Shown here: piece by piece, positions 25,577 through 50,632 of the stretch | Layout of the letters: each line of letters starts with the position of its first letter | Numbering within the stretch: position 1 is the first letter of the stretch | Assembly: GCA_964424795.1 (NCBI GenBank) | Contig: CAYRKG010000001.1 | Coordinates: 101,312-165,311 of the forward strand | Source of the DNA: an uncultured Spirochaetota bacterium | GTDB taxonomy: Bacteria > Spirochaetota > B62-G9 > DRHN01 | Reading direction: 5' to 3' | Length of the DNA: 64,000 nt | The notes under the pieces: model-generated | Databases searched by the model: none | Told to the model about the DNA's origin: nothing | What the model saw: only the letters and a program-made list of their open reading frames with translations | Position numbers and translations under genes: made by a program

Positions 25577-27568
25577 ATGGCAGGCGAACTTCCAAGAAGT
25601 CCAAATATCTTTCACCCTACAAAACCCTCCGCAGTAGGCTCACGACACAGCTTAGCACAGGAGGGCAGGATTCAGGAGGAAGAGTTTAAACGCCTTATAG
25701 AAGAAGAAACAGAAAAGGTTTTGAAAACAATTTCTGTTAAACTTCCCAAAGAGGTTCTGGATAAACTCGAAATAATGGGTGGAATAAAGGCAAAGCTTTA
25801 CAACTATTTTAATCAGAACTATCAAAACATGTTCAACAGGTATCTGGTTACCACTGAAGATGAGCTGGTAAAAAAGGTCAGGAACTTCGTTGATAAGGAA
25901 GAAATGAAAACCCTTGCCCGGTATACACCAAAAGAGATTACCCAAATGCTCGACCAAATCGCTGGGGCAGACAAGTTTAACACCGGTGAAATTGAAAAAT
26001 CAATCGTTAATATGTACGGACATCTACAGGGGCATGTTCAGAGAGGCCTAAATGACCTCGAAAATGAAACAAATGCGCTTCTGAGACAGAAAACCGATGT
26101 TGGTGCATTCATCAGGGGGGAGAATGCATATTCAATCGTTAAGTGTTCATTTAAGGATAATTCTACCAGACCGAAGACAGTTTCTGACGTAAAGCTTTCA
26201 GTAAATATTCTCGATTCAGAACTGATAAGTCCTATTTTCCAGTACCAGGCAACTGTTGAATTCTTGATCAAGGATCAAATTTCGAATACCATAATGGATC
26301 TGATTGATCGGGAACTCGAGCGTTTTAAAGACCAGCTCGTTGATGAAGGAAAGGCTGAGCTTTCCGACGGTGAAGTAATGTTTGAGAAGATGAAACGGGT
26401 TACTAACTTTACAGATGATGAAAAAGAGGATGAAAAATCGAGGCGCTATACCTTTATGGCAAAAAGCCTCATGGATAAAATTGAGGGATTGAGGGCTGAA
26501 ATAGATCAGAAGGAGTTTGATCCTTTAAATATCAGGGAAACCCTTAAAAAGATCGTGGATATGGAAAATATCAGAAACAGAGGTTTTAACACAGCTGTAA
26601 ACTCTATTACTTCTATCCTCGATACCAGCAAGATGGGCTACCAGTACATCGAAAATTTAAAGAATGCACGCGAAACAATAATAAGGGAGTATGAGGATAC
26701 AGATCCTAACAGACTGCCAGATGAAAGATACTCGATGAGACTGAAGTACTACGATCAGGCCCAGCTTTTAAAGGAGAGAGAGGCTTACGATAAACAGGTG
26801 GAAGAGTTTGTAAAGGAGGTCCAACACCTCTGGGATGTAACAGAGATCGTATATCAAAATAGTAAATCATTCTTGCGTGTAAATGATTTCCAAGATATTG
26901 CAAAGAGGGCAAAGAACAAGATAAAGAGACAGATCAAGAGTTTATCTGGTGAGCCACTCTATGAGGATATGAAAAAAACCTGGAATGAGATAGTGTCCAT
27001 TAAAGCAGGTGAGACCGATGTGGAAAAGCTGAACGAGACCTATGTCTATGAAAAAAACCTTCTCAAAAAGATGCTCAGAAAAACAAGGGAAAAGGTGCAG
27101 ACGATCTACGGATACCAGAATCCAAAAACGAGGGTAATATTAGACGAGAGGATAAACTTCCTGGAAAGGGAGTTTGAAGAGTTTGAATATATCATCAACC
27201 CCTACCACATACAGCCAGGTGTAATACTCGACGTAGATATTACAAGCATTAAAAGAAAGAAGTTCACCCTAAATAGTATGGCAAATGTGCTGAATGAGTT
27301 TCTCCATGGCATCTCTAAGGGGTTTCAGGATGCTGCCTTTGCCTCTTTCAGGAGGAGAAGATCAACTATGAGGGAAGATATTGCCCAGACATTCGCTGAG
27401 GGGGAGAGTATCTCTGAAGGTCCAGCTTCATACGCTGAATCTATCGTGAGTGAAACTGCTGCATCTCCAGCAAGACAGGCTCCAGGGCCCACTGGAGTAA
27501 AAAAGAAAGCAGATGTCACTCCAACAAAAAGAAAAAAAACTGACTTTGAAGACCTAAAAGAGCTATAA
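25577..27568 (+). CDS. Large acidic helical protein of unknown function; possible spirochaetal cytoplasmic filament protein (CfpA-like)
   Basis: 663 aa (~77 kDa), no TM, rich in charged helical segments. The size, and the order large protein / ~300-aa protein / ppdK, match my recollection of the Treponema cfpA locus. Not verified. Confidence 0.35.
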
Positions 27569-28483: not shown

Positions 28484-31093
28484 ATGAAAAAATTCTATTC
28501 TTTCAGCAGCACAGAATACCTCGATAGCAAAGAGACAGGAGAAATTGTCGGCATACGTGGGAAAAGGATTATGGATCTTGCATCCCTAGGGGCTCCCATA
28601 CTCCCAGGCTTTATGCTTCCCAACGAAACAGTTAATGATCTGATTGCTTCATCATCAGATGCAAAAAAGTTTCTAATTGAACCTATTGCGAAAGTTGAAA
28701 GGATTCTGGGCAAACGGTATAATGATGAAAAGAATCCTCTTCTAATAAAAATTGTTGAAAGTCCACAGCTCAATATGATTCATGCATTTTCCATACATAA
28801 CATTGGCCTCTGTGATAAAACCATTGGCGGATTCATAAACTTCGTCGGGGAGGATTTTGGATACCACGAATATAGAAATATCCTGATTAAAATAACCGAG
28901 CTCGAGAAAAAGACAGATATTGATAATGAAAGATTGGGTAAGATTGATGAGTTTGCTAAGCAATTAAAATCCTCCAAGAAGCAGAAAAAAATTAAGGAAA
29001 CAATAGAGGAATACAAAAACCTGTACTCCAAGGAGATCTTTTCAAATGCCTATGATCAACTCTTCTTTATCATAAACCTTTTTCACTCATTCTTTCAAAA
29101 AAGCTCAAGTAATGTAGATTCCGCACTTCTACTCCAGGCAATGACCTTTGGTAATTATGGAGAGGAGAGCTACTTTGGTAGCTGCTTTACACGAGATATC
29201 ATAACAGGAGAAAACGAGATAAGTGGCCAATTCTTTGTAAATGCCTTTGATGCAACTGAAACTAAGGGAAAATCTGTTACAAAAATTGATGCTGTATACC
29301 TCGAAGAACTAAAACGGTTATCTTCCGAGCTGGAGAAATACTTTAAGGAAATCCGCCAGATCCGTTTTACTGTTGAAAATGGAAGATTTTATGTAATAGA
29401 TCAGATTCCTGTTCCCAATAAATCAACCCAGGCAGAAATTAAAACACTGCTCCATCTTCATTCGCAAAATATTGTTGACGACACATATGTTATCAATGCA
29501 ATAAAGCCTGGAAGACTCTCTGAAATCCTGCATCCTGTTATCGACCTTAAAAGTGCAGAAAAACTCCAAAAGATTCAGGGTGGAATCGCAGGAGCTGTTG
29601 GTGCTGCAATTGGAAAGGTATATTTTTCAACAGACGAGCTCCTTAAAGCATATAAGAGGGCTACTCAGACAAACGAGGATACCAATTTCATTCTTGCTAT
29701 GCCTGCATCCTTTGCAGAAGATGTGAAGGCAATTGAGGTTGCAAAAGGGGTACTTACAAGTGAAGGAGGCTATGCCTCTCACGCTCCAGTTGTTGCCAGG
29801 AGCCTTGGTAAGGTTTCACTGGTATATCCAGAGATCAGATTTGAAAAAAACTGCATTAAGATTGGAAAAAGGACAGTAAAAGAGGGTGAATACCTATCAA
29901 TAAATGTACCCTATTATGAAATACCATCAATATATTTCGGCAAAGTAGACCTCATCGAACCATCACCCGAGGGAAGCGGACTTTTGGAGTTTCTTGAAAT
30001 TGTTCAGAAGAATCTCGACGATTTCGATGTACATGCAAACGCCGACCAGCCGAAGGATGCTGAGCTTGCAAAGCTCTTCAAGGCAAAGGGAATAGGCCTG
30101 TGCAGAACTGAACATATGTTCTTTCATGAGAAGAGGATCAATACATTCAGGGCAATGATTATAGCTCAGGAAAGAAAAGAGAGGGAGAAGGCATTAGAAA
30201 AACTGAAAGAGATGCAGGTAGCAGACTTTTACAAACTCTTCAAGATTATGGAGGGACTTCCTGTTACAATAAGGCTTCTGGATGCTCCTCTTCATGAGTT
30301 TCTTCCACATACCAAGGAAAGTATGGCAGATTTTATTGCCTTCATGAAGGCTAAATATCCCAAGCTAAGTAAAGAGGAAATAAGGCTTCGCAGTGATATG
30401 CTCAAGGAGTTCAATCCCATGCTCGGTCACAGGGGGATTCGTATTGCAATCTCATATCCAGAAATCTACAATATGCAGGTAAGGGCTATATTCGAATCTG
30501 CATACAGCTTAAAGAAAGAAGGAATAGAGGTAATACCGGAGATTATGATCCCTCTGGTTATGAGCGCAAACGAGATTAAAACGATAAGGAACGGGAAAAA
30601 GATCGAGGGAAAATCGATACGTGGGATTAAGGATGTTGAAGAAGAGGTTCGTAAGAACTTTAAAAGCGACCCCATAGAGTACAAAGTGGGAACGATGATC
30701 GAGCTCCCTGCTGCAGCTTTACAGGCAGATAGAATTGCACGATATGCTGAGTTTTTCAGTTTTGGAACAAATGACCTGACACAAACAACAAACGGTCTCT
30801 CAAGAGACGATTTTAACTCATTCTTCACCGATTACAATGAGTTTGACCTCTTAGAGCAAAACCCCTTCAAGGTTTTGGGAGAGCAGGTAAAAGAGCTGAT
30901 CAAGCTTGCAGCAGAACGGGGAAAGCTCACAAGACCTGATATTGTAATGGGAATATGTGGAGAGCATGGTGCTGAGCCTGCAAATATACCTTTTGTGAAA
31001 CAGAACGGCTTAAACTACGTCTCCTGCTCACCATACGGCATACCGATAGCAAAGCTCGCCATTGCCCAGATGAATCTAAAGCAAGAAGCTTAA
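28484..31093 (+). CDS. ppdK: Pyruvate, phosphate dikinase
   Basis: 869 aa. Phosphohistidine motif TSEGGYASHAPVVARSLG, and the PEP/pyruvate domain motifs CRTEHMFF, FSFGTNDLTQ and GICGEHG. Confidence 0.9.
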   Translation: MKKFYSFSSTEYLDSKETGEIVGIRGKRIMDLASLGAPILPGFMLPNETVNDLIASSSDAKKFLIEPIAKVERILGKRYNDEKNPLLIKIVESPQLNMIHAFSIHNIGLCDKTIGGFINFVGEDFGYHEYRNILIKITELEKKTDIDNERLGKIDEFAKQLKSSKKQKKIKETIEEYKNLYSKEIFSNAYDQLFFIINLFHSFFQKSSSNVDSALLLQAMTFGNYGEESYFGSCFTRDIITGENEISGQFFVNAFDATETKGKSVTKIDAVYLEELKRLSSELEKYFKEIRQIRFTVENGRFYVIDQIPVPNKSTQAEIKTLLHLHSQNIVDDTYVINAIKPGRLSEILHPVIDLKSAEKLQKIQGGIAGAVGAAIGKVYFSTDELLKAYKRATQTNEDTNFILAMPASFAEDVKAIEVAKGVLTSEGGYASHAPVVARSLGKVSLVYPEIRFEKNCIKIGKRTVKEGEYLSINVPYYEIPSIYFGKVDLIEPSPEGSGLLEFLEIVQKNLDDFDVHANADQPKDAELAKLFKAKGIGLCRTEHMFFHEKRINTFRAMIIAQERKEREKALEKLKEMQVADFYKLFKIMEGLPVTIRLLDAPLHEFLPHTKESMADFIAFMKAKYPKLSKEEIRLRSDMLKEFNPMLGHRGIRIAISYPEIYNMQVRAIFESAYSLKKEGIEVIPEIMIPLVMSANEIKTIRNGKKIEGKSIRGIKDVEEEVRKNFKSDPIEYKVGTMIELPAAALQADRIARYAEFFSFGTNDLTQTTNGLSRDDFNSFFTDYNEFDLLEQNPFKVLGEQVKELIKLAAERGKLTRPDIVMGICGEHGAEPANIPFVKQNGLNYVSCSPYGIPIAKLAIAQMNLKQEA

Positions 31094-31212
31094 AACTTCG
31101 GTTGTACCAAGATAGGGACAGCGCCTGTTTTTACTTCTTCTCTGGGTATTTAGTGCCATTTTCTCACATATTGAGTAACATAGCATTTAACTATTGATAT
31201 AGTTATACATTA
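30743..31212 (+). repeat. Direct repeat copy A (3' end of ppdK plus ~120 nt downstream)
   Basis: 30743-31080 is identical base-for-base to 46973-47310. After a divergent patch at the stop codon (including an indel), similarity resumes to 31212/47425. Confidence 0.9.
31115..31132 (+). terminator. Weak terminator-like hairpin after ppdK
   Basis: GGGACAG-cgc-CTGTTTTT. It is conserved in copy B as GGGACAG-ctc-CTGTTTTT. Confidence 0.35.
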
Positions 31213-31995
31213 TAGTATTAGCAAGATCACTATCAAGAAGTTTGACCAGTCATTCTTTCTCATCAGAGTTCAATCCATTAAAAACTTCCCTGAACTATGT
31301 AAGATGCTTCTTTAAATATATCTATCTACATCAAGAATATATCGCTTCTTCTCTTCAATCTTCACACCCCATTGGTTCTTATCAATTCCTTTTGTTTAAT
31401 CAGATTTATGTTAGATTTTAAACAAAAAGGTTGTATTATTAACATAGTTTTTATATATTTATAAAAGTATTCTAAAGCAATATTTGCTTCATTACAAATC
31501 ATAAAAGTTCTTACGCTTTATCTTGTTTTCTGTACGACCATCGGTAAAATTTATCTTTCATCTAATTCGGTTATATGTACTTTGGGATTATTTACGTGTA
31601 TAACTTGTTTTGTAGTTTACTTAGTTATGTATGTCGCTACATTTTGGGAATTACTCTCTGCATTAATCAATCTTAATTTTTAACCAACAGTAAGTGAGGA
31701 TTATTTTTTGGTTGTTCTTGCGGTAGTGTTCTTAAGAAGTACTCCTCTATACGGAAGTGTAGGTCGACATTTGGTGGATATTTTGATTTAATTATTAGTG
31801 GCTTTTTAAAAACAAGTATAATTATTGTTAAGCTTCCAGGGATCTACATAGAATTAGTAGACGGTTTATAATTATTTATGCAATAATCGGTTATAGGTAT
31901 GGGACTTAAAAGAGCAGGCCTGTTTAATAAAATAGAAAAGAAAAATGATGAGGTTTTAATTAATCGATTAAAGCTATAAACATAGGAGGTATAAA

Positions 31996-32817
31996 ATGAA
32001 ATTATCATTCAATACATGGGTTTATTCTAGCTTCCCTGCATGGTTACCTGCATATCCTATTGGGTATATCATAGAAAGTTTGGCAAAAATAGGGTATGAT
32101 GGTATTGAGTTGGGCTGCGCGAGTCCGGTTGCCTATCCACCATATATGACTAAAGCAGATCGGGAACGTATAGTGAACTTACTGAAAGAAAATAACATTA
32201 GTATCTCATCAGTTCTTCCAGCTCCTGGTGGAGGATGTGGGAATAATGTGGCAAGCCCTATTGAAGCAGAGAGAAAACAAGCGATTCAGAGTTACAAAGA
32301 TTGTATTGATCTTGCAAGTGATTTAGGTGGTAACCTGTGTCTTTATGTGGGCGGATGGGTGATATGGGGTGTTGATCAAGACCAAGCATGGGAATGGTCA
32401 AGGGAATGTTTGATTGAGATAGCAAAGCACGGAAAGGCAAAAGGGGTGATTTTGGCTATTGAACCTACACCCGCCGATAGTAATCTAGTCGAAACAGCAG
32501 ACGATGCTTTAAAACTTATGCGAGAATCCAAAATGGATAATGTGAAAGTAATGTTTGATACGATTCACGCTCTGTACCGTAAGGAAATACCATCTGATTA
32601 TGTTGACAAGATGGGTAATGATCTCATACATGTGCATATCTCTGATCTGGATCGTATGCCTCCCGGCACATATACAGACTTTTCTTTTTTTATTGACGCT
32701 TTACGAGCTGTGAGATATCCAGGATACCTCACAATGGAAATAGGACTTGGTGGACGTGGTATAGATGGGAACAGCTTTGCAAAGAAAGCATATGACTATA
32801 TGAAAAGCATTTTGTAA
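31996..32817 (+). CDS. Sugar phosphate isomerase/epimerase (xylose isomerase-like TIM barrel)
   Basis: 273 aa, strong AGGAGG RBS. Typical AP_endonuc_2 layout (GYDGIELG..., LAIEPTP, HVHISD, LTMEI). Confidence 0.7.
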   Translation: MKLSFNTWVYSSFPAWLPAYPIGYIIESLAKIGYDGIELGCASPVAYPPYMTKADRERIVNLLKENNISISSVLPAPGGGCGNNVASPIEAERKQAIQSYKDCIDLASDLGGNLCLYVGGWVIWGVDQDQAWEWSRECLIEIAKHGKAKGVILAIEPTPADSNLVETADDALKLMRESKMDNVKVMFDTIHALYRKEIPSDYVDKMGNDLIHVHISDLDRMPPGTYTDFSFFIDALRAVRYPGYLTMEIGLGGRGIDGNSFAKKAYDYMKSIL

Positions 32818-32913
32818 TCTCATAACCATGTTAGTAATACAATGATTTAGTTTTTAATTGTAGTGAGTCAAATTGTTATTTTATCAAGCATATCGTCTAT
32901 AGAAGCATTGATC

Positions 32914-34878
32914 ATGAGTATTGATGTTCGATTTGATAAGCTTTTTTCAGAATTTAGAATAAAAAACCAGTTTTTAAAAAATAGAATAGTCTTTTTGCCC
33001 CATTATACAGGCTTAGCAAAAAGGGAGAGTCTTCCCAGCGAAAATGAGATTTATTATTATACAGAAAGAGCTAAAGGAGGGACAGGTTTAATTATTGCTG
33101 GAAATTATGCTGTAAGCAAAAGTGGACAGATGCACTGTACTTTTATCGATGCATCAGATAATGAAGTTATCCCTAATTTTAAAAAAACAGCAAAGCTTGT
33201 TCACCAATATGGAGCAAAGATTTTTGGACAACTCACGCATGCTGGGCCTACCAAAATGGAAATTCCTCAACCTGATCTATGGGCTCCTTCCCAGGTAATA
33301 GAGGGAAGTTCTGGAACATATACTAAGAAAGTTGATTTAGATGAAATAAAGGATGTGGTTTTTTCATTCAAAAAAGCAGCGCAAAATCTCGTGAGAAGTG
33401 ACTTTGATGGTGTTGAACTGAAGATAGGGCATGATGGGATCCTAAGGGCATTTATCTCTCCCCATTACAATAAAAGAAATGATGAGTATGGAGGAAGCTT
33501 TAAGAATAGGTTGCGAATAATAATAGAAATTATAAAGGCTGTTCGGAGTATCCTGAACGATCATCATGTACTTGGTATTCGTTTATGTATGGATGAATTT
33601 GAAGATGGTGGCTATGATCTGAAATACGCTATTGAGGTTGCAAAGTATTTAGAGACACATGGTCCAATTGATTATGTCAGTACAGATGCTGGTACAACAT
33701 GGGTTAGTTTCATTATGCAGATTCCACCGATGAGTATTCCACTTGGATATGCCGAATATATGGCAGCAGCTCTTAAAAAAGAAATCAAAGTTCCGGTAAT
33801 CACTTTTGGTAGGATAAACGATCCAGTGCAAGCTGAACAGATTCTTCAAAATGATAGTGCAGACCTCATCGGAATGGCAAGACAACTTGTATGTGATCCT
33901 GAGATGCCTAATAAAGCAAAAGCAGGAAACCTCGATGGTATTAGGAAATGTATAGCCTGTCTGGATGGATGTGGGATCCAAACAACTCTCAATCAACCTA
34001 TACGATGCATTCAGTGTATTTCAGTCGGTAATGAGAAAGAGTACGGAATTGGTACATTGAAAAAAGCAAAAAACAAGAAACGAATAATCATTGTGGGAGG
34101 TGGAGTAGCAGGTATGAAAGCAGCAGGAATTGCTGCTAAAAGAGGACACAGTGTGATGTTGTTCGAAAGAGATAGCTTCCTTGGCGGTCAGCTCAACCTC
34201 GTAAAAAAAATACCATTTCGAAATGAATTTTCTGAGGTAGTGCGTTACCTCGACTTTCAACTTAAAAATATCGAAAATGTGAATATCCAACTCAATACGG
34301 AGGCCACAGAAGATCTTATCCTTGATGAATCACCTGATGTTGTTATTATTGCAACAGGCTCTACCAGGAATGTACCGCTCAATTTCAGAAATAAAAAAAC
34401 CGCAACAAGCTGGGATGTTCTTAGTGAGCGAATAGAAATAAAGAAAGAGGTTGTAATCTTCGATCAGCTTGCCAAATCAGAAGGAGTTGGAGTAGCAGAG
34501 TATATCACAGAATATTATGAAGATATAAATATTATGTTTTTTACTCCTGCCTCACATGCTGCTGAGGATATGCATTTCCTCAATCAGGATATTATTTGCA
34601 GAAAGCTTTTTTCAAAGAATATTACGTTTTATCCCTATTATGAGTTAAAGCAAGTTAAACCAAACAAAATTACCTTTCTGCACAGGTATACCAGAAAAGA
34701 ATTCATCATACACAAATACGATAATTTTATTTTTGTTGGTGATATGTACTCAAATGATATGCTTTACTGGAAACTGAAAGGGAAAATAAAAGAACTTTAC
34801 AGAATAGGCGATGCATGTGCTCCAAGGATTGTTGAGTTTGCAATTCATAGCGCTGAAAGGCTTGCAAGAAGCATTTAA
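32914..34878 (+). CDS. FadH/2-enoate-reductase-like flavoprotein (OYE-type FMN domain + 4Fe-4S + FAD/NAD(P) domain)
   Basis: 654 aa from ATG 32914; the track ORF starts at GTG 32863. OYE-like N-terminal part (NRIVFLPHYTG, GQLTHAGP, DGVELKIGHDG), a Cys cluster (CIACLDGCGIQ...IRCIQC) and a dinucleotide fold (IIIVGGGVAGMKAA). Confidence 0.75.
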   Translation: MSIDVRFDKLFSEFRIKNQFLKNRIVFLPHYTGLAKRESLPSENEIYYYTERAKGGTGLIIAGNYAVSKSGQMHCTFIDASDNEVIPNFKKTAKLVHQYGAKIFGQLTHAGPTKMEIPQPDLWAPSQVIEGSSGTYTKKVDLDEIKDVVFSFKKAAQNLVRSDFDGVELKIGHDGILRAFISPHYNKRNDEYGGSFKNRLRIIIEIIKAVRSILNDHHVLGIRLCMDEFEDGGYDLKYAIEVAKYLETHGPIDYVSTDAGTTWVSFIMQIPPMSIPLGYAEYMAAALKKEIKVPVITFGRINDPVQAEQILQNDSADLIGMARQLVCDPEMPNKAKAGNLDGIRKCIACLDGCGIQTTLNQPIRCIQCISVGNEKEYGIGTLKKAKNKKRIIIVGGGVAGMKAAGIAAKRGHSVMLFERDSFLGGQLNLVKKIPFRNEFSEVVRYLDFQLKNIENVNIQLNTEATEDLILDESPDVVIIATGSTRNVPLNFRNKKTATSWDVLSERIEIKKEVVIFDQLAKSEGVGVAEYITEYYEDINIMFFTPASHAAEDMHFLNQDIICRKLFSKNITFYPYYELKQVKPNKITFLHRYTRKEFIIHKYDNFIFVGDMYSNDMLYWKLKGKIKELYRIGDACAPRIVEFAIHSAERLARSI

Positions 34879-34899
34879 TTCTATTCATCAGGATTTACT

Positions 34900-35769
34900 A
34901 TGGACGATATAATGGTATGTGTAAAACAAGTGCCCAATACCATGAATATTAAGCTTGATCCTGAAACACACACCTTAATAAGAGAGGGCGTTGCATCCAT
35001 AATGAATCCCTTCGATGAGTTTGCGCTTGATATAGCATTAGACTGCAAAGATAGATATGGTGTTAAGGTTGGTGTTCTCACTATGGGTCCGATTCAAGCG
35101 AAAGAAATCCTCCGATACTGCATAGAAAAAGGAGTTGATGAAGCATATCTCTTAACAGATAGCAGACTTGCCGGCTCAGATACACTGGTAACGGCAAAAG
35201 CACTGTATACTGTGATTGTAAAAACAAGTTATAAAAATATATTCTGTGGCCAGGAGTCTATTGACAGCAGCACTGGACATATCGGCCCTAGTCTGGCTGA
35301 ACTTTTAGGTCTTCCTCAGGTTGTTTATGTAACTGAAATAATAGATTTGAAAGGTGGGTGGATGAAAGTAAGGTGCAAACTGGAGAAGGTATCACAAATA
35401 GTAAAGGTAAAACTTCCTGCAGTATTCACCTTCAGGAAGACCTCTCGAAAGCTAAGACCAAAGCAAACAAAGGCTTATAAATCAAAGTTAAAGGTATTCG
35501 GACTTGACAAGGTAACACTAGATGAAAATGAGGTGGGAATCAAAGGCTCACCTACTCGGGTTATTGATATAGTAATAGATGAAAGTGCATTGAACTATAT
35601 AAAAATGGATGAGAATCTTTCAGCTTATGAAAGAATAAAATACATAATGAACGGTGGTGTTGAAAAAAAAGAAAACAGGATAATGTTGAAGGGCAGTTCG
35701 AAGAATACGATACAAATACTTCTGGAAAAACTGGGATTAGATTATAGTAATATCAAGAACAAAGGTTAA
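34900..35769 (+). CDS. etfB: Electron transfer flavoprotein beta subunit
   Basis: 289 aa. IMVCVKQVPN..., MNPFDEFALD, GQESIDSSTGHIGP. Confidence 0.8.
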   Translation: MDDIMVCVKQVPNTMNIKLDPETHTLIREGVASIMNPFDEFALDIALDCKDRYGVKVGVLTMGPIQAKEILRYCIEKGVDEAYLLTDSRLAGSDTLVTAKALYTVIVKTSYKNIFCGQESIDSSTGHIGPSLAELLGLPQVVYVTEIIDLKGGWMKVRCKLEKVSQIVKVKLPAVFTFRKTSRKLRPKQTKAYKSKLKVFGLDKVTLDENEVGIKGSPTRVIDIVIDESALNYIKMDENLSAYERIKYIMNGGVEKKENRIMLKGSSKNTIQILLEKLGLDYSNIKNKG

Positions 35770-35789
35770 TTACCAGAGGAATAGCAGAG

Positions 35790-36983
35790 ATGCAGGTAAG
35801 TCCTATTTACATTGTTGATGAGTTGTGTGATGGATGCGGAGCTTGTAAGAATATCTGTGTATACGATGCTGTTAGTTTAGAGAATAGGAAGGCTATTATT
35901 GATATTGATAAATGTACCCTATGTATGATGTGTGTAAAGGTATGCAAGGTAAAAGCAATAAATATTACAGAGATAAAAAAGGATAGTGATGTATTTGGAT
36001 ACAGAGGTGTATGGGTATTCATTGAATATCAAGAAGATAAAATTACTCCCGGATGTCTTCAGATATTAAGTAAAGGTTATAAATTAGCAGCAAAACTCAA
36101 TCAGGAATTAACTGCAGTGATAGTGGGAAGTTCAAATGAAAAAGTTGAGGAAATTAAGGATGTGGTTGATGAATATGGTGCTGATTCGGTTATTTTTTTA
36201 TATTCACAAGCCATTCATTCCTATCAGGTAGAGGATGTTGCTAATATAGTATCTACAGAGATACTCCTGAGAAAACCTGCTATAGTATTGTTTCTTGGAT
36301 CGTTTCTTGGAAGAGTGCTTGCCCCTAGGATAGCGGCCAAGGTGAAGACCGGTCTTACGGCGGACTGTACAGACCTCTATATCGATTATGAGGGTAAACT
36401 AGTGCAGGTGAGACCTACCTATGGCGGTAAGATCCTTGCGTCCATTGTGTGCCCATATGATAGGCCTCAGATGGCATCGGTAAGATCTAATATTTTTGAA
36501 AGTAAAAAAATTAAAAAGAATCACAAATGTGCTTCAATTCTGCTAAAGGAAGTGTGGGTTAATTCAATAGATAAAGTTAAAAGTATCGTCAATACCTTCG
36601 ACGATGAAACCAGTAATTTGGGGATAGATGAAGCTCGAATTATAGTATGTGGTGGTTATGGAGTAGGGTCCAAGGAGGGATTTAATCTTCTAAAGCAGTT
36701 AGCAGACAAGCTTGGAGGAGTAGTTGCAGGTACAAGAAGCGTGGTTGATGAGGGATGGCTTGATTTTTCTCATCAGATAGGTCAGACCGGTAAAACTGTA
36801 AGACCGATGATATATATTGGATGTGGGGTATCTGGAGCAATCCATCATCTCATTGGCATGAAAAACTCAAAATTTATTATTGCGATTAATAGAGATTCTA
36901 ATGCCCCAATATTTAAATATGCAGATATAGGAGTAGTTGCTGATTTGTTTGAGTTAGTGCCTAGGTTAATTGAAAGCTTTTAA
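35790..36983 (+). CDS. etfA: Electron transfer flavoprotein alpha subunit with an N-terminal 2x[4Fe-4S] ferredoxin domain
   Basis: 397 aa. CDGCGACKNICVYDA and CTLCMMCVKVCKVKA, followed by the EtfA core (IVCGGYGVGS, AGTRSVVDEGW, QIGQTGKTVRP, YIGCGVSGAIHH). Confidence 0.8.
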   Translation: MQVSPIYIVDELCDGCGACKNICVYDAVSLENRKAIIDIDKCTLCMMCVKVCKVKAINITEIKKDSDVFGYRGVWVFIEYQEDKITPGCLQILSKGYKLAAKLNQELTAVIVGSSNEKVEEIKDVVDEYGADSVIFLYSQAIHSYQVEDVANIVSTEILLRKPAIVLFLGSFLGRVLAPRIAAKVKTGLTADCTDLYIDYEGKLVQVRPTYGGKILASIVCPYDRPQMASVRSNIFESKKIKKNHKCASILLKEVWVNSIDKVKSIVNTFDDETSNLGIDEARIIVCGGYGVGSKEGFNLLKQLADKLGGVVAGTRSVVDEGWLDFSHQIGQTGKTVRPMIYIGCGVSGAIHHLIGMKNSKFIIAINRDSNAPIFKYADIGVVADLFELVPRLIESF

Positions 36984-37065
36984 TAACACTAGGAGAACGT
37001 ACAAGAGATATTTGTATAGATGTTTGAAATGTATTGATAATTATTTAACTGTAAAGGAGGAGTAT

Positions 37066-38034
37066 ATGAAGCTTGGGCTTAAGTCTAATTGCTATAATGA
37101 TAAAAGTTGGGAAAAAACTTTAGATATTCTAAAAGAAAAAGGTATAAGTGCTGTCGAGCCCGGTGCTGGAGGATTTAATGGAAAGGCACATTGTAATCCC
37201 GCTGAATTGCTAAAAGATTCCGCGTCTATGAAAAAATTCAAAGAAGCTGCTGATAAACGAGAGATAGAGATAACCGCATTGGCTGTACACGGAAACCCTC
37301 TTCACCCACAAAAATCGTTTTCTAAAGAGCATACAGGTGATGTGGAAGCAGCAATAGAACTCGCTGGTAAGTTGGGTATAAAGGCTATAACCTGTTTTGC
37401 CGGCTGCCCTGGTGCGAGTGAGGAGTCAAGGGAGCCTAATTGGATTACCTGTCCATTCCCTCCCTATTTTGGAGATTCAGTTATCTGGCAATGGAAGCAG
37501 AGGGTGATACCATTCTGGAAAGAGATGGCAAAAAAAGCTAAAAAATCAAAAGTAAAAATTGGATTCGAGATGCATCCGGGTGATGTAGTCTATAATACTG
37601 AAACATTACTTATGCTCAGAGAGCAAGTCGGCGCGGAAGAAATAGCATGTAACTTTGACCCAAGCCATCTTTTTTGGCAAGGCATGGATCCTATTGAATC
37701 TATAATGAACCTGAAAGAAATGATTGTTCATGTACACGCAAAGGATTGTAAGATTAATAACAGAGTCGTCAAGATTCGGGGTGTAAATGATTGGAAGCAT
37801 TATGGGGATATAGCAAACAGAGCATGGACGTTCAGAACAGTGGGATACGGGCACGGATTTGAGTTCTGGAATGATTTTGTGAGTATATTACGACTTATAG
37901 GCTATGATTGGGTATTGAGTATTGAACATGAAGATCCATTAATGTCAGTAAATGAAGGATTGGAAAAATCAATAGAGTTTCTCAATGATGTTTTAATTCA
38001 TGAACCGGTAGGGAAAAAGTGGTGGGAGATTTAA
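37066..38034 (+). CDS. Xylose isomerase-like TIM-barrel protein (paralogue of 45451-46527)
   Basis: 322 aa from the ATG after an AAGGAGG RBS; the track ORF starts upstream at 36970. Motifs HGNPLHP, FEMHPG, NFDPSHLFWQGMDPI, HVHAKD and LSIEHED. Confidence 0.7.
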   Translation: MKLGLKSNCYNDKSWEKTLDILKEKGISAVEPGAGGFNGKAHCNPAELLKDSASMKKFKEAADKREIEITALAVHGNPLHPQKSFSKEHTGDVEAAIELAGKLGIKAITCFAGCPGASEESREPNWITCPFPPYFGDSVIWQWKQRVIPFWKEMAKKAKKSKVKIGFEMHPGDVVYNTETLLMLREQVGAEEIACNFDPSHLFWQGMDPIESIMNLKEMIVHVHAKDCKINNRVVKIRGVNDWKHYGDIANRAWTFRTVGYGHGFEFWNDFVSILRLIGYDWVLSIEHEDPLMSVNEGLEKSIEFLNDVLIHEPVGKKWWEI

Positions 38035-38267: not shown

Positions 38268-39461
38268 TTATGAATGACCTATTGTTTTTCTTATCATATA
38301 AATTTCTTCACTTAAAGGATACTGCCCATATTTTAACCCTGCTTCATATAATATAATAATATTTTCAGGTTGAACATCATCTTGAATATTTTGGGCGCAA
38401 CAAAATATATAACCACCACTTGGCGCATAAATAGCTATTCTTCTTTTAGCTTCTTCGATTACTTCTTGTGTTGTTCCATATGGCATAATTTTTTGAATAT
38501 CTATACCTCCATGAAAACAAAGTCTATTCCCGTATGTATCTTTCAAATAAGTACTATCCATCTGATAAGCTCGAGGTTGAAGTGAATTAAGGGCATCTAT
38601 TCCAACTTCTAATAATAAAGGAACCATTTCTCTAACTGCACCACAACTATGGTGAAATATTTTTGCCTTTGTTTTTGATTTTATAAAATTAATTAGTTCT
38701 TTATAATAAGGAAATATTAACTTCTCATAAAGTTTTGGTGAGATAAAACTACCTTGTTGTGTTCCAAGGTCATCATGTAGAAATATTATATCAATATATT
38801 TCCCAATGATATTCAAATATACATCCATAATAGCCAAAGAAATATCTGTAAGTTTTCGTAATAAAGTATGCGCCCATTTAGGTCTGCATATCATATCAAC
38901 ACTAAAATTCTCAAATCCTCTTAGCCAAAACGAAGTTTCTAAAAGACCGAATACCGCAGGTGCAGCAACTATTGAATAATCAGTATTATAATAAAGATAT
39001 TCAACACGATCTTTTAATCCCTTTACTCTATGAGGATCATATGGATCAAAAAATTTATAGTTTTTTATCTCATTAATCGATTTTGCATCTCTAATTGGGT
39101 GATATATTATTTCTCCATATATTCCTTTGTATTTCCATACAAAACCAATTTCGTCAGTCCAGGTTCCATCATTTGACAATACTCTTTTATAATTTTCTCC
39201 CGCACCTATAAATACTCTTCTGAAATCTATGTCAAATTTTTGCAAAATACGTTCATCAATTTCTGTAGCCATAAGCCAATTCTCATCAATTCTTTCATAT
39301 TCAACTGGTTCGAGATTTAAATATTTTTTTAAATTGTAGTAAGCATTTTTTGTGATAGTAGAAACAGCTGCACCTAAATCAATTGGAACTCTGTCAGCTT
39401 CTTCATGATTCAATACTTTTCTCACTCTTTCTCTATGGGTATATTTCATTCTTTTCTTCAA
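38268..39461 (-). CDS. Uroporphyrinogen decarboxylase (URO-D) family protein
   Basis: 397 aa. N-terminal RERVRKVLNHEEADRVPIDL and an overall URO-D/MtaA-like layout. Very AT-rich gene. Confidence 0.55.
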   Translation of the reverse strand: MKKRMKYTHRERVRKVLNHEEADRVPIDLGAAVSTITKNAYYNLKKYLNLEPVEYERIDENWLMATEIDERILQKFDIDFRRVFIGAGENYKRVLSNDGTWTDEIGFVWKYKGIYGEIIYHPIRDAKSINEIKNYKFFDPYDPHRVKGLKDRVEYLYYNTDYSIVAAPAVFGLLETSFWLRGFENFSVDMICRPKWAHTLLRKLTDISLAIMDVYLNIIGKYIDIIFLHDDLGTQQGSFISPKLYEKLIFPYYKELINFIKSKTKAKIFHHSCGAVREMVPLLLEVGIDALNSLQPRAYQMDSTYLKDTYGNRLCFHGGIDIQKIMPYGTTQEVIEEAKRRIAIYAPSGGYIFCCAQNIQDDVQPENIIILYEAGLKYGQYPLSEEIYMIRKTIGHS

Positions 39462-39660: not shown

Positions 39661-40632
39661 TTAAACCTTTGTCCTTTCAGCTCCATATCTATGACCTATG
39701 ATTGCAAATATAATTATTACTCCATATACAAGTTTTGTCCAAAACCCGGTTAAACCTACTGCTATTATTCCCGTTTCTAAGAAACCTATAATTAATGCAC
39801 CAAGAAACGCCCCATATATTGTACCAACTCCACCCCATGTAGGAGTACCACCAAGAAAGACTGCTGCTAATGCAACTAATAGATATCCTTCACCTGAAGT
39901 TGGCCAGAAATTCAAATTTATGGTGTTGGATAATATACCAGAAAATGCACCAGAGAATCCTACTAAAATGAATGATCCAATAATTGTTTTATCTACATTT
40001 ATACCCATCTCCCTCGCACTTTCTCTATTATCCCCAACAAAACGTACATGGGCCCCAAATTTGAAACGATTAAATATAAACCATAAACCTATACTAAAAA
40101 CTAAAGCCCATATCATTTGTATTGGAAAGTTTATTATTCTTCCTACCATAATTTTATAAAATATACTTTTATCAAGATCTGTAAGTACCAGATTTCTACC
40201 TTGAGTTAAAACCATTATGAACCCTCTTAGTGCATACATCATACCTAAAGTGGACACCAAAGATGAAAGCTTGAGTTTAGTTATTAATAATCCATTTATT
40301 AATCCACATACTATACCAGTGATTATACCAGCAATTAAACCTAAATAAGGACTCTTTATCCAGATTGTAATATATGAAAATGACAATCCAGAAATTCCCA
40401 TAACAGACCCAAAAGATAAATCTATTTCACCACTTACAATAACAAATACCAGGGATAAGGTAAGTATTATAATAATAGGTACAGATGTTAAAACTGCATT
40501 ATAAATATTTACATTAAGAAAAATTTTAGGCTTAAATATTATGAAGATCATAAAAATAGCCAGAAAAACATAAGTAACATTAATTGCTCTCTGATATTTT
40601 AGAAATAGTATTTTCTTATTTATTCTAGGCAT
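39661..40632 (-). CDS. CUT2-type (RbsC/FrcC-like) sugar ABC transporter permease
   Basis: 323 aa, ~9 TM segments. Glycine-rich C-terminal segments are typical of the BPD_transp_2 family. Confidence 0.75.
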   Translation of the reverse strand: MPRINKKILFLKYQRAINVTYVFLAIFMIFIIFKPKIFLNVNIYNAVLTSVPIIIILTLSLVFVIVSGEIDLSFGSVMGISGLSFSYITIWIKSPYLGLIAGIITGIVCGLINGLLITKLKLSSLVSTLGMMYALRGFIMVLTQGRNLVLTDLDKSIFYKIMVGRIINFPIQMIWALVFSIGLWFIFNRFKFGAHVRFVGDNRESAREMGINVDKTIIGSFILVGFSGAFSGILSNTINLNFWPTSGEGYLLVALAAVFLGGTPTWGGVGTIYGAFLGALIIGFLETGIIAVGLTGFWTKLVYGVIIIFAIIGHRYGAERTKV

Positions 40633-40674
40633 TTAAAACCTCTATAAATTGATTATGAAGAAATGGTTTATATC

Positions 40675-40790
40675 AATTTAGAGCCTCAACTCTATTAAAG
40701 TAAAGGTACACTATCCAAATAAGTAATTTAGGGACCATTGACCATTTGCTATTCTCATAATATCCGGTTGAATATATGATAGAGGTCAAA
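40675..40790 (-). repeat. Intergenic hairpin repeat, divergent copy R5
   Basis: Shares CTCAACTCTA and ACCATTTG blocks with R3/R4. More degenerate than the other copies. Confidence 0.35.
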
Positions 40791-40850
40791 GAGATATCAA
40801 TCCAAGAATTATACAGAGCTAATTAGAAATTAAATTTATCTTAATATCTT

Positions 40851-41600
40851 TTACAATCTACTTTTAGCAATATTAGTCATTTTATTAATAAGTTCATCAA
40901 GCGTTATTGTAGATTTATTTATTGAAGCCGAAATTTCTCCTCTATCCATTATGGCAAATCTTTCAGCAATGTCATAAACATGATAGATATTGTGTGTTAT
41001 AAAAATACAAGAACTTCCTCTTTCTTTTATTCTCTGAACGAAATCAAAAACTTTTTTAGTTTCTAAAATAGATAAAGCCGTTGTTGGCTCATCTAAAATA
41101 ACAAGGTTTGCCTTAAAAAATATTGCTCTAGAAATAGCTACTCCTTCACGCTCCCCACCAGAACATGTTAATACTTTTGATTCTGGAATGAGTAAACTTG
41201 ATGTAAAGCCCATCTCTCTCATTAATTTTTCTGTTTCTATTCTTTGTTTTTTAAAATTTATATAACCAATAAAATTAGAAATTTCTCTTCCCATAAAAAT
41301 ATTACTTTCTAAAGATTGCTGATCTGCTAAAGCTTTATCCTGATAAACTGTCTCTATTCCTGCATTACGAGCTTCTTTTATACCCCATTTATTTAATTCT
41401 TTGCCATTTAAAAAAATTTTTCCTGAGTCGGGAGGATACAATCCTGAAATAATTTTTATTAATGTTGACTTGCCAGCACCATTATCTCCTATAAGGCCTA
41501 TTATTTCATTATTTCCAACTTTAAAATTAATGTTGCCAATTGCTAGAATTGTCCCGAAATGTTTGGTAATATTCCTTAATTCCAAAAAACAATTATTCAT
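40851..41600 (-). CDS. Sugar ABC transporter ATP-binding protein (single NBD, FrcA-like)
   Basis: 249 aa. Walker A GDNGAGKST, signature CSGGEREG (variant of LSGGQ), Walker B LVILDEPT, H-loop ITHN. Confidence 0.8.
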   Translation of the reverse strand: MNNCFLELRNITKHFGTILAIGNINFKVGNNEIIGLIGDNGAGKSTLIKIISGLYPPDSGKIFLNGKELNKWGIKEARNAGIETVYQDKALADQQSLESNIFMGREISNFIGYINFKKQRIETEKLMREMGFTSSLLIPESKVLTCSGGEREGVAISRAIFFKANLVILDEPTTALSILETKKVFDFVQRIKERGSSCIFITHNIYHVYDIAERFAIMDRGEISASINKSTITLDELINKMTNIAKSRL

Positions 41601-41796
41601 TGAAATACACCCTTTTCATTGGATCTCTAATGAGTTATTCTAGTTTAAAAGATATCTTGAAGACCCCATTTTTGCAAATTAATTAATAAGATCTTTCTTT
41701 CTTCATTTTATAACCGTATAGCTTACCATCTTACGTTCTCTTGTATATGAAACCAGATTATCTTAGGAGTACAACACAATCATAATATTAAGAAAT

Positions 41797-41905
41797 GAAA
41801 AAGCCCAACTCAACCCAATAATAGTTACAATGCAAACTAATAGCCATTTGTAAAATAGGGTGTTGGGCTATGGCCTATGATCATTCTATATTCAGGTAAA
41901 TACTT
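41797..41905 (-). repeat. Intergenic hairpin repeat, copy R3 (terminator-like on the minus strand)
   Basis: AGCCCAAC (41802-41809) and GTTGGGCT (41862-41869) enclose 52 nt. On the minus strand the hairpin is followed by a T-run. Confidence 0.65.
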
Positions 41906-42157
41906 CAAATGTATTTAAGATTTTCTTCATGTATTTGAGTTCATCTAAAAAATTCCACTTCATATTATCAAGTGTCTTTGTTAACGTCATTTACAAAAAT
42001 GTTTTTATTCTTAAATACATCATTTTCATAAATCTTTCCTTTCAGATTTCAATCCTTTGCTATGTTCTATATTTATCCTCCCCCAATTTATAATATTCGT
42101 TTCCTTTCTTATCTTATAAAATATTCTATACCAAGCACTCTAAATATATTCTTTACC

Positions 42158-43186
42158 TTATCTAATTCCTAGTTTAGCCCAGTGTGCTACTTCTTTATAA
42201 TTTGATTGATCAACAAAGACCTCACCTGACCCAGTATCTACAGTTATTAAAGAAAAACCATATTTTTGATTCAAGCAAACACTTAATACACCTAATAACC
42301 CTTCGAGGTAAGGCTGCTGGTCTATTGCTAAACTTGCATATCCTTTCTCAAATGCTTCAATTACTTTAGGAGATACATCATACCCAATATTCTTAATTTC
42401 TCCTGGTTTCTTCCCTAAAGATTCCATATAATAAGGACATGCACCAAGAAATTGACCTCCAGAGTAACTTATCAACTTTACATCGGGATTAGCTGCAACC
42501 GCCCCAGCTACTTGTGGCTGAAATAAAGTAGGATCAGCAGCTGATTCCATTGAATGTTTTATTTTTACTATATTTGCTCTAATCTCTTCGAAGGCCCTTA
42601 ACATACTAACATCTCTTACCTCAAAACCTGGTTCACCCCAGTTACCATCAAGTATTACAGTGTCCCCGGCTTTAATCCCAAATTGTTCTACAGCCCTTTT
42701 ACCTAATGTATATCCTAGTCTATCCCAATAAGTCCCTATATACCCTGTCTGATATTTTTCTTGAACTTTCGGAACATCGACAGCTATCATTGTTATAACA
42801 ATTCCAGCTTTTTTCGCCTGATCAACTAGGGGTAATAACGCATCATCTCCTGGATAGCTCATCATTACAATACAATCTGGTTTAGCTGCTATAGCTTCTC
42901 TAAGTTGTTGTAAAATTTTCTCTGTTTGCCAACCTGACCATATGTAATCCACATCACATCCAAGAAAGTCTTGAGCAGCTTTCGCACCATTAAAAACTAT
43001 TGTAGCCCATAAATCACCCTCATCACCACCACAAAAGAATCTCACCTTTATACCTGCAAATGGCTTTTCCTCCATAACACCTACTTTTTCTTCAACAGTA
43101 ACTCCCTCTTCTTTTCCTGCATAAAGTGAAAAAGCGATGAAGCAAAAAATAATAATTATACTTACCAATAATAATTTAGTCTTCAT
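42158..43186 (-). CDS. Periplasmic sugar-binding protein (RbsB/Peripla_BP-like)
   Basis: 342 aa with an N-terminal signal/anchor and a GGAGG RBS. It heads the ABC genes on the minus strand. Confidence 0.7.
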   Translation of the reverse strand: MKTKLLLVSIIIIFCFIAFSLYAGKEEGVTVEEKVGVMEEKPFAGIKVRFFCGGDEGDLWATIVFNGAKAAQDFLGCDVDYIWSGWQTEKILQQLREAIAAKPDCIVMMSYPGDDALLPLVDQAKKAGIVITMIAVDVPKVQEKYQTGYIGTYWDRLGYTLGKRAVEQFGIKAGDTVILDGNWGEPGFEVRDVSMLRAFEEIRANIVKIKHSMESAADPTLFQPQVAGAVAANPDVKLISYSGGQFLGACPYYMESLGKKPGEIKNIGYDVSPKVIEAFEKGYASLAIDQQPYLEGLLGVLSVCLNQKYGFSLITVDTGSGEVFVDQSNYKEVAHWAKLGIR

Positions 43187-46972: not shown

Positions 46973-47425
46973 TATGCTGAGTTTTTCAGTTTTGGAACAA
47001 ATGACCTGACACAAACAACAAACGGTCTCTCAAGAGACGATTTTAACTCATTCTTCACCGATTACAATGAGTTTGACCTCTTAGAGCAAAACCCCTTCAA
47101 GGTTTTGGGAGAGCAGGTAAAAGAGCTGATCAAGCTTGCAGCAGAACGGGGAAAGCTCACAAGACCTGATATTGTAATGGGAATATGTGGAGAGCATGGT
47201 GCTGAGCCTGCAAATATACCTTTTGTGAAACAGAACGGCTTAAACTACGTCTCCTGCTCACCATACGGCATACCGATAGCAAAGCTCGCCATTGCCCAGA
47301 TGAATCTAAAGGAAAATGCTTAAATTAGGGACAGCTCCTGTTTTTACTTCTTCTCTGGTTATTTAGTGCCATTTTCTCACATATTGAGTAACAGAGCATT
47401 TAATTATTGATATAGTTATACATTA
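46973..47425 (+). repeat. Direct repeat copy B: displaced 3' ppdK fragment (coding part 46973-47323) plus downstream sequence
   Basis: Identical to 30743-31080 over 338 nt. The C-terminus reads ...NLKENA* against ...NLKQEA* in the intact gene. There is no start context of its own. Confidence 0.9.
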
Positions 47426-48379: not shown

Positions 48380-48482
48380 TGAAGTACCTCCCCTTATAGT
48401 CTTAGTTTAGTACTCAGATTCTGCATTAAAAGCTGTGATAACTGGTAACCACCACGAATCAAACTCTCCACATCTCATCCTT

Positions 48483-50628: not shown

Positions 50629-50632
50629 CAGT

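Follow-up and report, generated by a model that had tools for sequence, protein, structure and literature searches.

What would an electron-transfer flavoprotein (ETF) be doing between two sugar-type TIM barrels? The question is raised by a locus in a 64,000-nucleotide stretch of DNA from an uncultured Spirochaetota bacterium (contig CAYRKG010000001.1, positions 101,312 to 165,311), here called the window. Genes for both ETF subunits, and for a flavoenzyme that joins an old yellow enzyme (OYE) fold to an iron-sulfur cluster, lie there between genes of xylose-isomerase-fold proteins. All coordinates and strands given below are those of the window. The five genes in question are the following:

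31996-32817, + strand: TIM1, a ketose-3-epimerase-like xylose-isomerase-fold barrel (273 aa; AP_endonuc_2, 143.8 bits)
32914-34878, + strand: the flavoenzyme, with an OYE-fold flavin mononucleotide (FMN) domain, a 4Fe-4S site and a flavin adenine dinucleotide (FAD) domain (654 aa; assigned by Pfam, NCBIfam and alignments)
34900-35769, + strand: EtfB, the small ETF subunit, whose C-terminal extension is conserved (Pfam ETF, 118 bits)
35790-36983, + strand: EtfA, the large ETF subunit, carrying a 2x[4Fe-4S] ferredoxin domain at its N terminus (two CxxCxxCxxxC motifs)
37066-38034, + strand: TIM2, a barrel of the AtHYD/SCO6571 subgroup (322 aa; AP_endonuc_2, 110 bits)

Our analysis indicates that these five genes are one functional unit, placed in a genomic island dedicated to importing and breaking down a sugar-like compound. 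The module is real, conserved and horizontally mobile, and it combines two known kinds of system, namely ETF-dependent OYE/Fe-S enzymes and keto-sugar TIM-barrel pathways. As to its chemistry, we tentatively favor a reading in which a dehydrogenation linked to the ETF takes place beside a sugar carbonyl and hydration follows, and assign it a probability of roughly 40%.

The initial annotation of this DNA had described five co-oriented, tightly spaced genes with the domains named above, and the open reading frame (ORF) listing together with Pfam and NCBIfam scans bears this out. The genes are separated, in order, by 96, 21, 20 and 82 bp. The longest ORF of the flavoenzyme gene (32863-34878) opens at a GTG at 32863, homologues start at an ATG, and we place the start at ATG 32914, which gives the 654 aa reported earlier. 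The TIM2 start lies at ATG 37066 within a longest ORF (36970-38034) opening at TTG 36970, in agreement with homologue lengths.

The core had been taken for a five-gene unit between sugar genes, which understated its extent, as it is actually the core of a 12-gene island of 16.2 kb. The further features of the island are:

30743-31212: left island boundary, the left copy of the duplicated 3' end of ppdK (repeat comparison)
38268-39461, - strand: URO-D-family protein, last gene of the ATP-binding cassette (ABC) importer operon (Pfam URO-D, 75 bits)
39661-43186, - strand: CUT2 (ribose-type) ABC importer, comprising a permease (39661-40632), an ATPase (40851-41600) and a Peripla_BP_4 binding protein (42158-43186)
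43595-44368, + strand: DeoR-family regulator, conserved in orthologous islands
44447-45298, + strand: class II ketose-bisphosphate aldolase, GatY/KbaY-like (F_bP_aldolase, 276.7 bits)
45451-46527, - strand: TIM3, a paralogue of TIM2 (37% identity)
46973-47425: right island boundary, the right copy of the duplicated ppdK 3' end (repeat comparison)

The five-gene module is cargo of a 16.2-kb insertion, because a repeat of the ppdK 3' end flanks the block. The direct repeat consists of 300 nt identical at 100% (30743-31042 and 46973-47272) and of a second block of 100 nt at 96% (31113-31212 and 47326-47425), and the right copy holds an orphan ppdK tail ORF of 72 aa (47105-47323). An orthologue of the flavoenzyme was found in only 1 of 16 genomes searched from the same family, at 72% identity and in another genomic setting, which fits horizontal acquisition of the island. 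Domain scans of the island detected no acyl-CoA dehydrogenase, CoA transferase or CoA ligase, as the initial annotation had remarked for the vicinity of the core.

Whether the five genes are ever conserved together was left to neighborhood analysis by that annotation. We found the full five-gene set plus sugar genes in all five well-flanked contexts with at least 59% identity, which makes the core a recurring module. The association is far beyond chance and the gene set recurs in other genomes and in metagenomes. A deep protein search showed the orthologue clade of the flavoenzyme to be sharply bounded: orthologues share 52-72% identity and are mostly metagenomic, paralogues share at most 46%. 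The trio of flavoenzyme, EtfB and EtfA was kept in every orthologue context. A Spirochaetota metagenome-assembled genome (MAG; 72%) carries TIM1, flavoenzyme, EtfB, EtfA, TIM2, solute-binding protein (SBP), permease, ATPase, DeoR, aldolase and TIM3; identities are 59-79% and the order is rearranged. The same gene set is present at the loci labeled P0014 (63%), L107 (64%) and L108 (59%), with L107 adding the URO-D gene and the aldolase. In an Actinomycetota MAG (54%) the trio follows SBP, permease, Zn-dependent alcohol dehydrogenase, TIM barrel, a Gfo/Idh/MocA oxidoreductase (GFO), URO-D, ATPase, MttB and a sugar-kinase-like gene, and at L017 (57%) the order is flavoenzyme-EtfB-EtfA-GFO-TIM-SBP-SBP-TIM. 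Over 15 loci, flavoenzymes that are closer in sequence also have closer EtfB and EtfA proteins (r = 0.92 between the pairwise identities), and the ferredoxin domain was present in 15/15 EtfA proteins of these loci.

We then consider how the flavoenzyme handles electrons. Oxidored_FMN (PF00724) matched residues 26-355 with 186.6 bits, and an FAD Rossmann domain follows. After the barrel, the cysteines of a 4Fe-4S motif, CxxCxxxC...C (C363, C366, C370 and C382 in ORF numbering), do not vary among 24 orthologues and recur in nearly all members of a family alignment of 85 relatives. In this alignment a family signature, E-x-K-x-[AG]-H-D-G-[IL]-L-R, takes the site of the classical OYE motif H-x-x-H-G-Y: K187-x-x-H190-D191-G192 replaces the OYE substrate His/His(Asn) pair, and the position of the FadH proton donor Tyr166 is deleted. 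The first dinucleotide-binding GxGxxG is retained. No family member covering that region has the second one, of the NAD(P)H type, at the aligned position, and the corresponding stretch of the flavoenzyme reads VVIFDQLAKSEGVGVAEYI. The distant relative L011 keeps both the classical H-x-x-H-x-Y and the second GxGxxG. Because the NAD(P)H Rossmann motif is absent, the flavoenzyme is predicted to need a protein electron partner, and its motifs point to exchange of electrons solely via the dedicated, CarDE-like and ferredoxin-fused EtfAB encoded next to it.

By these motifs the flavoenzyme forms part of a distinct subfamily. Its best PDB relatives are FadH (1ps9, top by sequence), naphthoyl-CoA reductase (NCR), trimethylamine dehydrogenase (TMADH) and histamine dehydrogenase. 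The fold and the cofactor domains are those of FadH, clostridial enoate reductases, BaiCD, BilR and the mycofactocin-associated OYE_2, but in comparison to FadH and YqjM it lacks the catalytic Tyr and the NAD(P)H motif, and equivalog cut-offs were missed throughout: 610 bits against 793 for the best NCBIfam model (OYE_2, TIGR03997), 373 against 825 for BaiCD and 342 against 750 for BilR. Names given to its relatives in NCBI and UniRef include 'NADH oxidase'.

For EtfA the best PDB match was CarE (6fah_A), with 348.6 bits over the full length including the ferredoxin domain; the ferredoxin-fused LctC of the lactate dehydrogenase-Etf complex matched as well, with 233.7 bits. EtfB scored 138-157 bits against bifurcating ETFs (4kpu, 5ol2, 7koe, 7qh2, 6fah) versus 53-66 bits against non-bifurcating ones, and we classify the ETF on these scores as presumably of the CarDE-like, bifurcating (group 2) type. 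The stretch at the second FAD, DGDTAQVGP in 4kpu and 5ol2, reads DSSTGHIGP here with T and GP kept; D122 and T125 of EtfB are invariant in 16 homologues. The closest ETFs, the bifurcating or confurcating ones of CarCDE and LctBCD from Acetobacterium woodii (6fah, 7qh2), likewise carry an EtfA with N-terminal 2x[4Fe-4S], but their partner is an acyl-CoA dehydrogenase or an FAD-oxidase, whereas the partner in the island is an OYE/Fe-S flavoenzyme. Besides the altered FAD stretch, the island EtfB differs from them by its conserved C-terminal extension (residues 225-289; Y-x-x-V-D...L-S-A-x-E-R-I-x-Y-I-x-N-G-G-I, with D237, R245, G252 and G253 invariant). Solved bifurcating EtfB proteins have 260-265 aa and align up to about residue 225; the extension is common to EtfB proteins linked to the flavoenzyme and may contact the partner enzyme. 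In total the genome encodes four ETF pairs, each adjoining a partner of its own: an acyl-CoA dehydrogenase, two FAD-oxidases (lactate/glycolate dehydrogenase-type genes) and the flavoenzyme. The three further pairs are found at:

contig C16, 28.8-32.1 kb: EtfAB pair
contig C40, 11.0-16.1 kb: EtfAB pair
contig C65, 7.3-10.8 kb: EtfAB pair

The presence of an adjacent partner at each ETF pair of the genome supports a dedicated pairing of the flavoenzyme with its EtfAB.

The initial annotation had set the pairing of an ETF with this class of enzyme against the usual acyl-CoA dehydrogenase partners; TMADH (ETF complex 1o94-1o97) and the N-methylproline demethylase StcD, encoded with etfBA, are precedents that it overlooked. 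Both resemble the flavoenzyme in a three-domain build with FMN, 4Fe-4S and a vestigial nucleotide domain at 27-30% identity, and dimethylglycine dehydrogenase DgcA is a further ETF-dependent OYE/Fe-S enzyme. StcD is similar down to the absence of an NAD(P)H motif, with the same degenerate stretch in place of the second GxGxxG and with its own etfB and etfA adjacent on a Rhizobium etli plasmid. Differences lie in context and active site. TMADH and StcD work in an amine context; in the island the context is sugar, and the ETF is a ferredoxin-fused one of the bifurcating type. Where TMADH has Cys30, which carries the 6-S-cysteinyl FMN, the flavoenzyme has a Tyr (FLPHYTG; the TMADH structure 1djq we take to be the C30A form), and the StcD active-site motif LE-AYGHLIDQF differs from the family motif K-x-x-H-D-G. 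The partnership of an ETF with an OYE/Fe-S enzyme is therefore not new; its keto-sugar setting is. In line with the earlier impression that the locus matches no nameable pathway, a full-text literature search found no paper describing a flavoenzyme-ETF keto-sugar module.

The link to keto-sugars comes from the TIM barrels. By its matches TIM1 is a relative of the ketose 3-epimerases and not a member of a named equivalog: D-psicose/D-tagatose 3-epimerases scored 55 bits and the 3-keto-glucoside 4-epimerase YcjR 31 bits among PDB entries, and cut-offs were missed for IolO (92 vs 300), FrlC (79 vs 305) and psicose 3-epimerase (70 vs 300). Homologues of TIM1 (46-58% identity) adjoin distant flavoenzyme relatives (35-45%) in Alphaproteobacteria, Verrucomicrobiota, Lachnospiraceae and Neobacillus. 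The family profile of TIM2 and TIM3 matched SCO6571 (2zds) with 245 bits and AtHYD (8ro4) with 234 bits, all other structures scoring far lower, and the same two entries were the top Foldseek matches of a predicted TIM2 model (pLDDT 87; TM 0.76-0.77), with 8ro4 in first place at TM 0.76. TIM2 alone scored 28.6 bits against 8ro4 at 17% identity, the uncharacterised SCO6571 being equally close. This suggests that TIM2 and TIM3 fall with the 2-hydroxy-3-keto-glucal hydratase AtHYD as putative hydratases. At L017 the TIM barrel adjoining the trio is closely homologous to AtHYD (410 bits, E = 7e-122), and GFO partners of the flavoenzyme at other loci are levoglucosan-dehydrogenase-like (185-203 bits). 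Whether levoglucosan-dehydrogenase-like or DgpA-like, these partners correspond in sequence to sugar 3-dehydrogenase types. The initial annotation had offered an unsaturated keto-sugar or a glycoside aglycone as substrate; the profile match to 8ro4 and the L017 homologue speak for the keto-sugar, and the aglycone found no support. An inositol (iol) pathway was rejected: models for IolE, IolG and IolO stayed far under their cut-offs, and IolD, IolB and IolC were absent.

Enzymes of this kind act in an oxidation-elimination-hydration-reduction route for glycosides and levoglucosan, described for GlycDH/AtOGE/AtHYD/Gfo of A. tumefaciens, the Dgp operon of strain PUE and the Lgd operon of Bacillus smithii (PMC10628242). 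As predicted for the island, this route employs xylose-isomerase-fold TIM barrels on 3-keto-sugars and a hydratase of the AtHYD subgroup. It relies on GFO-type sugar 3-dehydrogenases, whereas islands of the Treponema type contain no GFO gene themselves, the nearest here being 48483-49664; the operons in PMC10628242 name neither a flavin/Fe-S enzyme nor an ETF, of which the island has both. Finally, the route includes a beta-eliminase, and no homologue of the OGE/CGE/LgdB1-like eliminases was present among the PDB sequence matches of TIM1 or TIM2.

Beyond the orthologues, the sugar context extends over the flavoenzyme family. At 49 fully flanked family loci we counted a TIM barrel in 34/49, a CUT2 permease in 34/49, a GFO in 24/49 and an ETF in 22/49. 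The ETF-coupled enzyme occurs at keto-sugar loci in Spirochaetota, Lachnospiraceae, Christensenellaceae, Moorella, Bacillaceae and Actinomycetota; in Moorella the order is LacI-TIM-SBP-ABC-flavoenzyme-FixB-FixC-FixX-FixA-GFO-TIM2-like-ROK kinase. Homologues from Rhizobiaceae, Paracoccaceae and Verrucomicrobiota keep the sugar genes, mostly with no adjacent ETF. Among the Pseudomonadota and Verrucomicrobiota homologues only L090 has an adjacent ETF gene, the search having covered the gene neighborhoods, and the others would probably use an ETF encoded elsewhere. In a separate alphaproteobacterial subclade with K-x-x-H-D-G (L047, L049, L051, L052, L055, L058, L059, L062), LLAHWN or MLPHWT replaces FLPHYT. 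Where this subclade is fully flanked, genes for a TIM barrel, a GFO, an ETF or CUT2 components are missing from the neighborhood, and it probably acts on a different substrate.

Of the accessory genes in the island, the importer and the URO-D gene bear on the identity of the substrate. The binding protein has a rhizopine SBP as its best and sole NCBIfam match, which is weak (90 bits vs a cut-off of 420), and its PDB homologues, all at E of about 1e-10, bind differing sugars and are not diagnostic of the ligand. We considered and rejected an Amadori or opine dehydrogenase, because a neutral sugar or cyclitol is what the CUT2 binding protein suggests. The URO-D protein has an H-S-C-G (HxC) motif conserved in three copies, which we take to be the zinc motif of the MtaA-type methyltransferase branch, and the gene is also present at the orthologous loci L107 and L002. 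The ESM Atlas gave nothing beyond 'URO-D domain protein' for it. The aldolase exceeded the cut-off of TIGR00167 (243.8 bits) and is conserved in L001/L015 and L107.

The mechanism we favor assigns the flavoenzyme the role of a dehydrogenase on a keto-sugar intermediate. It would abstract a proton at the alpha carbon and a hydride at the beta carbon, counted from the carbonyl; TIM2 and TIM3 would hydrate the resulting enone, as AtHYD-like proteins, and TIM1, as a ketose-3-epimerase-like protein, would set the configuration next to the carbonyl. An ordinary ketohexose or hexose would result, to be phosphorylated and passed on to the class II aldolase. Desaturation plus hydration would amount to an oxygen-independent hydroxylation of a carbon that has no leaving group, a step needed only for sugars with no beta leaving group, e.g. 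anhydro- or deoxy-sugars such as 1,5-anhydrohexitols. Electrons would pass from FMN via 4Fe-4S to the ETF and, in a fermenter that has no quinone, would probably be merged with those of reduced ferredoxin onto NAD+, like in the lactate dehydrogenase-Etf complex.

Dehydrogenation is favored because the flavoenzyme, like the ETF-dependent dehydrogenases, has lost its NAD(P)H site. Oxidation is also favored because the Moorella homologue sits with FixABCX, an ETF:quinone-type outlet, and with a GFO, a TIM2-like barrel and a ROK kinase, a locus that fits the conversion of substrate and water to hexose and 2[H], with a product fit for a hexokinase, and because the Pseudomonadota and Verrucomicrobiota homologues are, L090 excepted, found with no adjacent ETF. 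The hydration step is favored because AtHYD-type enzymes hydrate an enone (PMC10628242). Taken together, the lost NAD(P)H site, the FixCX partners in Moorella and the aerobic homologues with no adjacent ETF lean towards oxidation and do not settle the direction.

Several observations speak against this scheme. The closest EtfA, CarE, belongs to a caffeyl-CoA reductase that is reductive and bifurcating. Orthologous islands with at least 59% identity have no GFO of their own (the GFO of P0014 is located upstream on the opposite strand), and the GFO of the window lies 1.9 kb outside the island instead of inside. No kinase was found in the island, and the aldolase family is phosphate-dependent. 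TIM2 and TIM3 stand at a distance from AtHYD, at 17% identity and a single-sequence score of 28.6 bits. The URO-D-like gene and the recurrence of MttB-family genes, seen in three related contexts (L001, L002, L031), hint at methylated substrates and have no place in the scheme. Lastly, a subclade of 55-57% identity from microbial-mat Spirochaetales (L109, L110, L020, L026) carries the trio alone, beside a BioY/ECF transporter and with no sugar genes, which means that the trio can serve another context.

A close rival, which we consider possible at odds below even, reverses the direction: the TIM barrels would dehydrate or eliminate the keto-sugar to an enone, and the flavoenzyme with EtfAB would reduce this enone with NADH and reduce ferredoxin as well. 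Such a bifurcating ene-reductase would be a sugar-level analogue of CarCDE or of the butyryl-CoA dehydrogenase-Etf complex and would conserve energy in a fermenter, as which we regard this spirochaete. The full-length EtfA match to CarE and the proximity of EtfB to bifurcating ETFs are in its favor, as are the OYE fold, best known for enone reduction, and the composition of the orthologous islands, which have no NAD-dependent sugar dehydrogenase and two (de)hydratase-like TIM barrels. However, LctC is also a good EtfA match and belongs to an oxidative lactate dehydrogenase-Etf complex, and both the proton-donor Tyr and the His/His(Asn) pair of OYE are replaced. Reduction of 2-hydroxy-3-keto-glucal would moreover yield an anhydro-sugar, a poor catabolic intermediate, and the aerobic homologues, having neither an NAD(P)H site nor an adjacent ETF, and FixCX in Moorella fit oxidation better.

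The enzyme might also be an ETF-linked dehydrogenase of another bond, either a sugar hydroxyl, in place of a GFO, or, where the substrate is a sugar or cyclitol bearing a methyl or amino group, its C-N or C-O(methyl) bond. This would parallel the action of TMADH, DgcA and StcD on N-methyl groups, and the kinship to StcD (30% identity, with its own etfBA) and to TMADH, one of the best PDB matches, agrees with it, as does the missing GFO of the orthologous islands. The conserved HxC motif of the URO-D protein in three contexts, the MttB-family genes in as many related ones and the weak match of the binding protein to an SBP for rhizopine (O-methyl-scyllo-inosamine) point the same way. The active sites do not: the StcD motif is unlike K-x-x-H-D-G and TMADH Cys30 corresponds to Tyr. 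A GFO co-occurs with the enzyme at 24/49 family loci and the two are thus no substitutes there, and no corrinoid protein is encoded in the island; we consider this reading unlikely. Least probable by far, in our estimation, is that the neighbors share no pathway at all, the ETF serving some other enzyme and the flavoenzyme being a general NADH oxidase or enoate reductase. The 'NADH oxidase' names of relatives and the subclade that keeps the trio alone would suit it, but the trio was always found intact, the gene set is inherited together across genomes at 59-79% identity, the other three ETF pairs of the genome each have an adjacent partner, and the flavoenzyme has no NAD(P)H motif.

If dehydrogenation followed by hydration is the correct reading, 1,5-anhydrohexitols are a candidate substrate, although we hold this narrower version to be doubtful. 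The flavoenzyme-ETF and the AtHYD-like hydratase would then act as an oxygen-independent C1 'hydroxylase', converting 3-keto-1,5-anhydroglucitol or -mannitol to 2-hydroxy-3-keto-glycal, further to 3-keto-hexose and, by reduction, to hexose; the oxidation-elimination-hydration-reduction route could not open these compounds. According to a 2025 review the sole known bacterial 1,5-anhydroglucitol route is a glycyl-radical one (PMC12441222). This 'anhydroglycolysis' (YbiW/PflD; PMC13450708, PMC12441222) would, in the case of anhydrohexitols, resemble the island in opening a sugar that has no anomeric hydroxyl, but it uses phosphotransferase (PTS) uptake and phosphorylated substrates, whereas the island has ABC uptake, flavin/ETF chemistry and entirely other enzymes. 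With the island, 1,5-anhydroglucitol would have a second anaerobic route, one that needs no radical. In rhizobia, the homologues would be the enzyme turning 1,5-anhydromannitol into mannose, a C1-hydroxylating enzyme of Rhizobiaceae that the review lists as unidentified and presumed P450-like (PMC12441222).

Outside the insertion we noted further genes that may be relevant:

48483-49664, - strand: Gfo/Idh/MocA oxidoreductase, candidate sugar 3-dehydrogenase, 1.9 kb outside the island
50633-51628, - strand: thiamine pyrophosphate (TPP)-dependent E1 beta
51741-52757, - strand: TPP-dependent E1 alpha

The best PDB match of the GFO is the C-glycoside 3-oxidase DgpA (7xr9, 90 bits), and it would belong to the pathway, as would the E1 alpha and beta genes, which also adjoin the orthologous modules of P0014 and L107. 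Two short-chain dehydrogenases/reductases (SDRs) lie just outside the island together with the GFO and E1 genes. The island may have landed beside a related pathway, or the E1 association may predate the insertion. Recurrent neighbors of the orthologous modules are E1, a SIS-domain protein and a GFO (47633-52757 on the - strand and 57609-58217 in the window; L107; P0014), and a RuBisCO-like protein adjoins the orthologous modules in two other genomes. At L098 (Sinorhizobium meliloti Rm41 pRM41A) a TIM1 homologue (44.5%) is found with a GFO and a CUT2 SBP and permease, with no flavoenzyme. This locus also contains acetoin-dehydrogenase-like E1 alpha, E1 beta and E2 as well as an SDR, and the same E1 and SDR families flank the Treponema island.

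The region upstream of TIM1 (31213-31995) has about 780 bp with no ORF of at least 60 aa and no Rfam match, which is unusually long for a promoter region. An Rfam search of 20000-48000 detected no RNA family, and the signal of a promoter/terminator scan was no higher than the shuffled expectation. Further upstream, 25577-27568 encodes the cytoplasmic filament protein CfpA (NF040882 equivalog, 1105 bits), a match that marks the host as a Treponema-like spirochaete; the adjoining proteins of 753 aa and 298 aa had no match in Pfam or NCBIfam. An MttB suspected in the window, the 478-aa ORF 15028-16464, turned out to be PilN-like and part of a type II secretion/pilus cluster.

Keto-sugar pathways of Gfo/Idh/MocA dehydrogenases and xylose-isomerase-fold lyases or hydratases have been described only recently, and the distribution of the flavoenzyme at keto-sugar loci suggests that sugar catabolism includes a redox step not yet described. 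Should the flavoenzyme reduce an enone by bifurcation, the module would represent flavin-based electron bifurcation with an acceptor derived from a sugar, a kind of complex of which, to our knowledge, none has been described. Desaturation and hydration, if true, would explain how sugars can be opened although their reactive carbon bears no leaving group, and would provide a concrete candidate for the missing enzyme oxidising C1 of 1,5-anhydrohexitols. In either direction the flavoenzyme extends the list of ETF partner enzymes.

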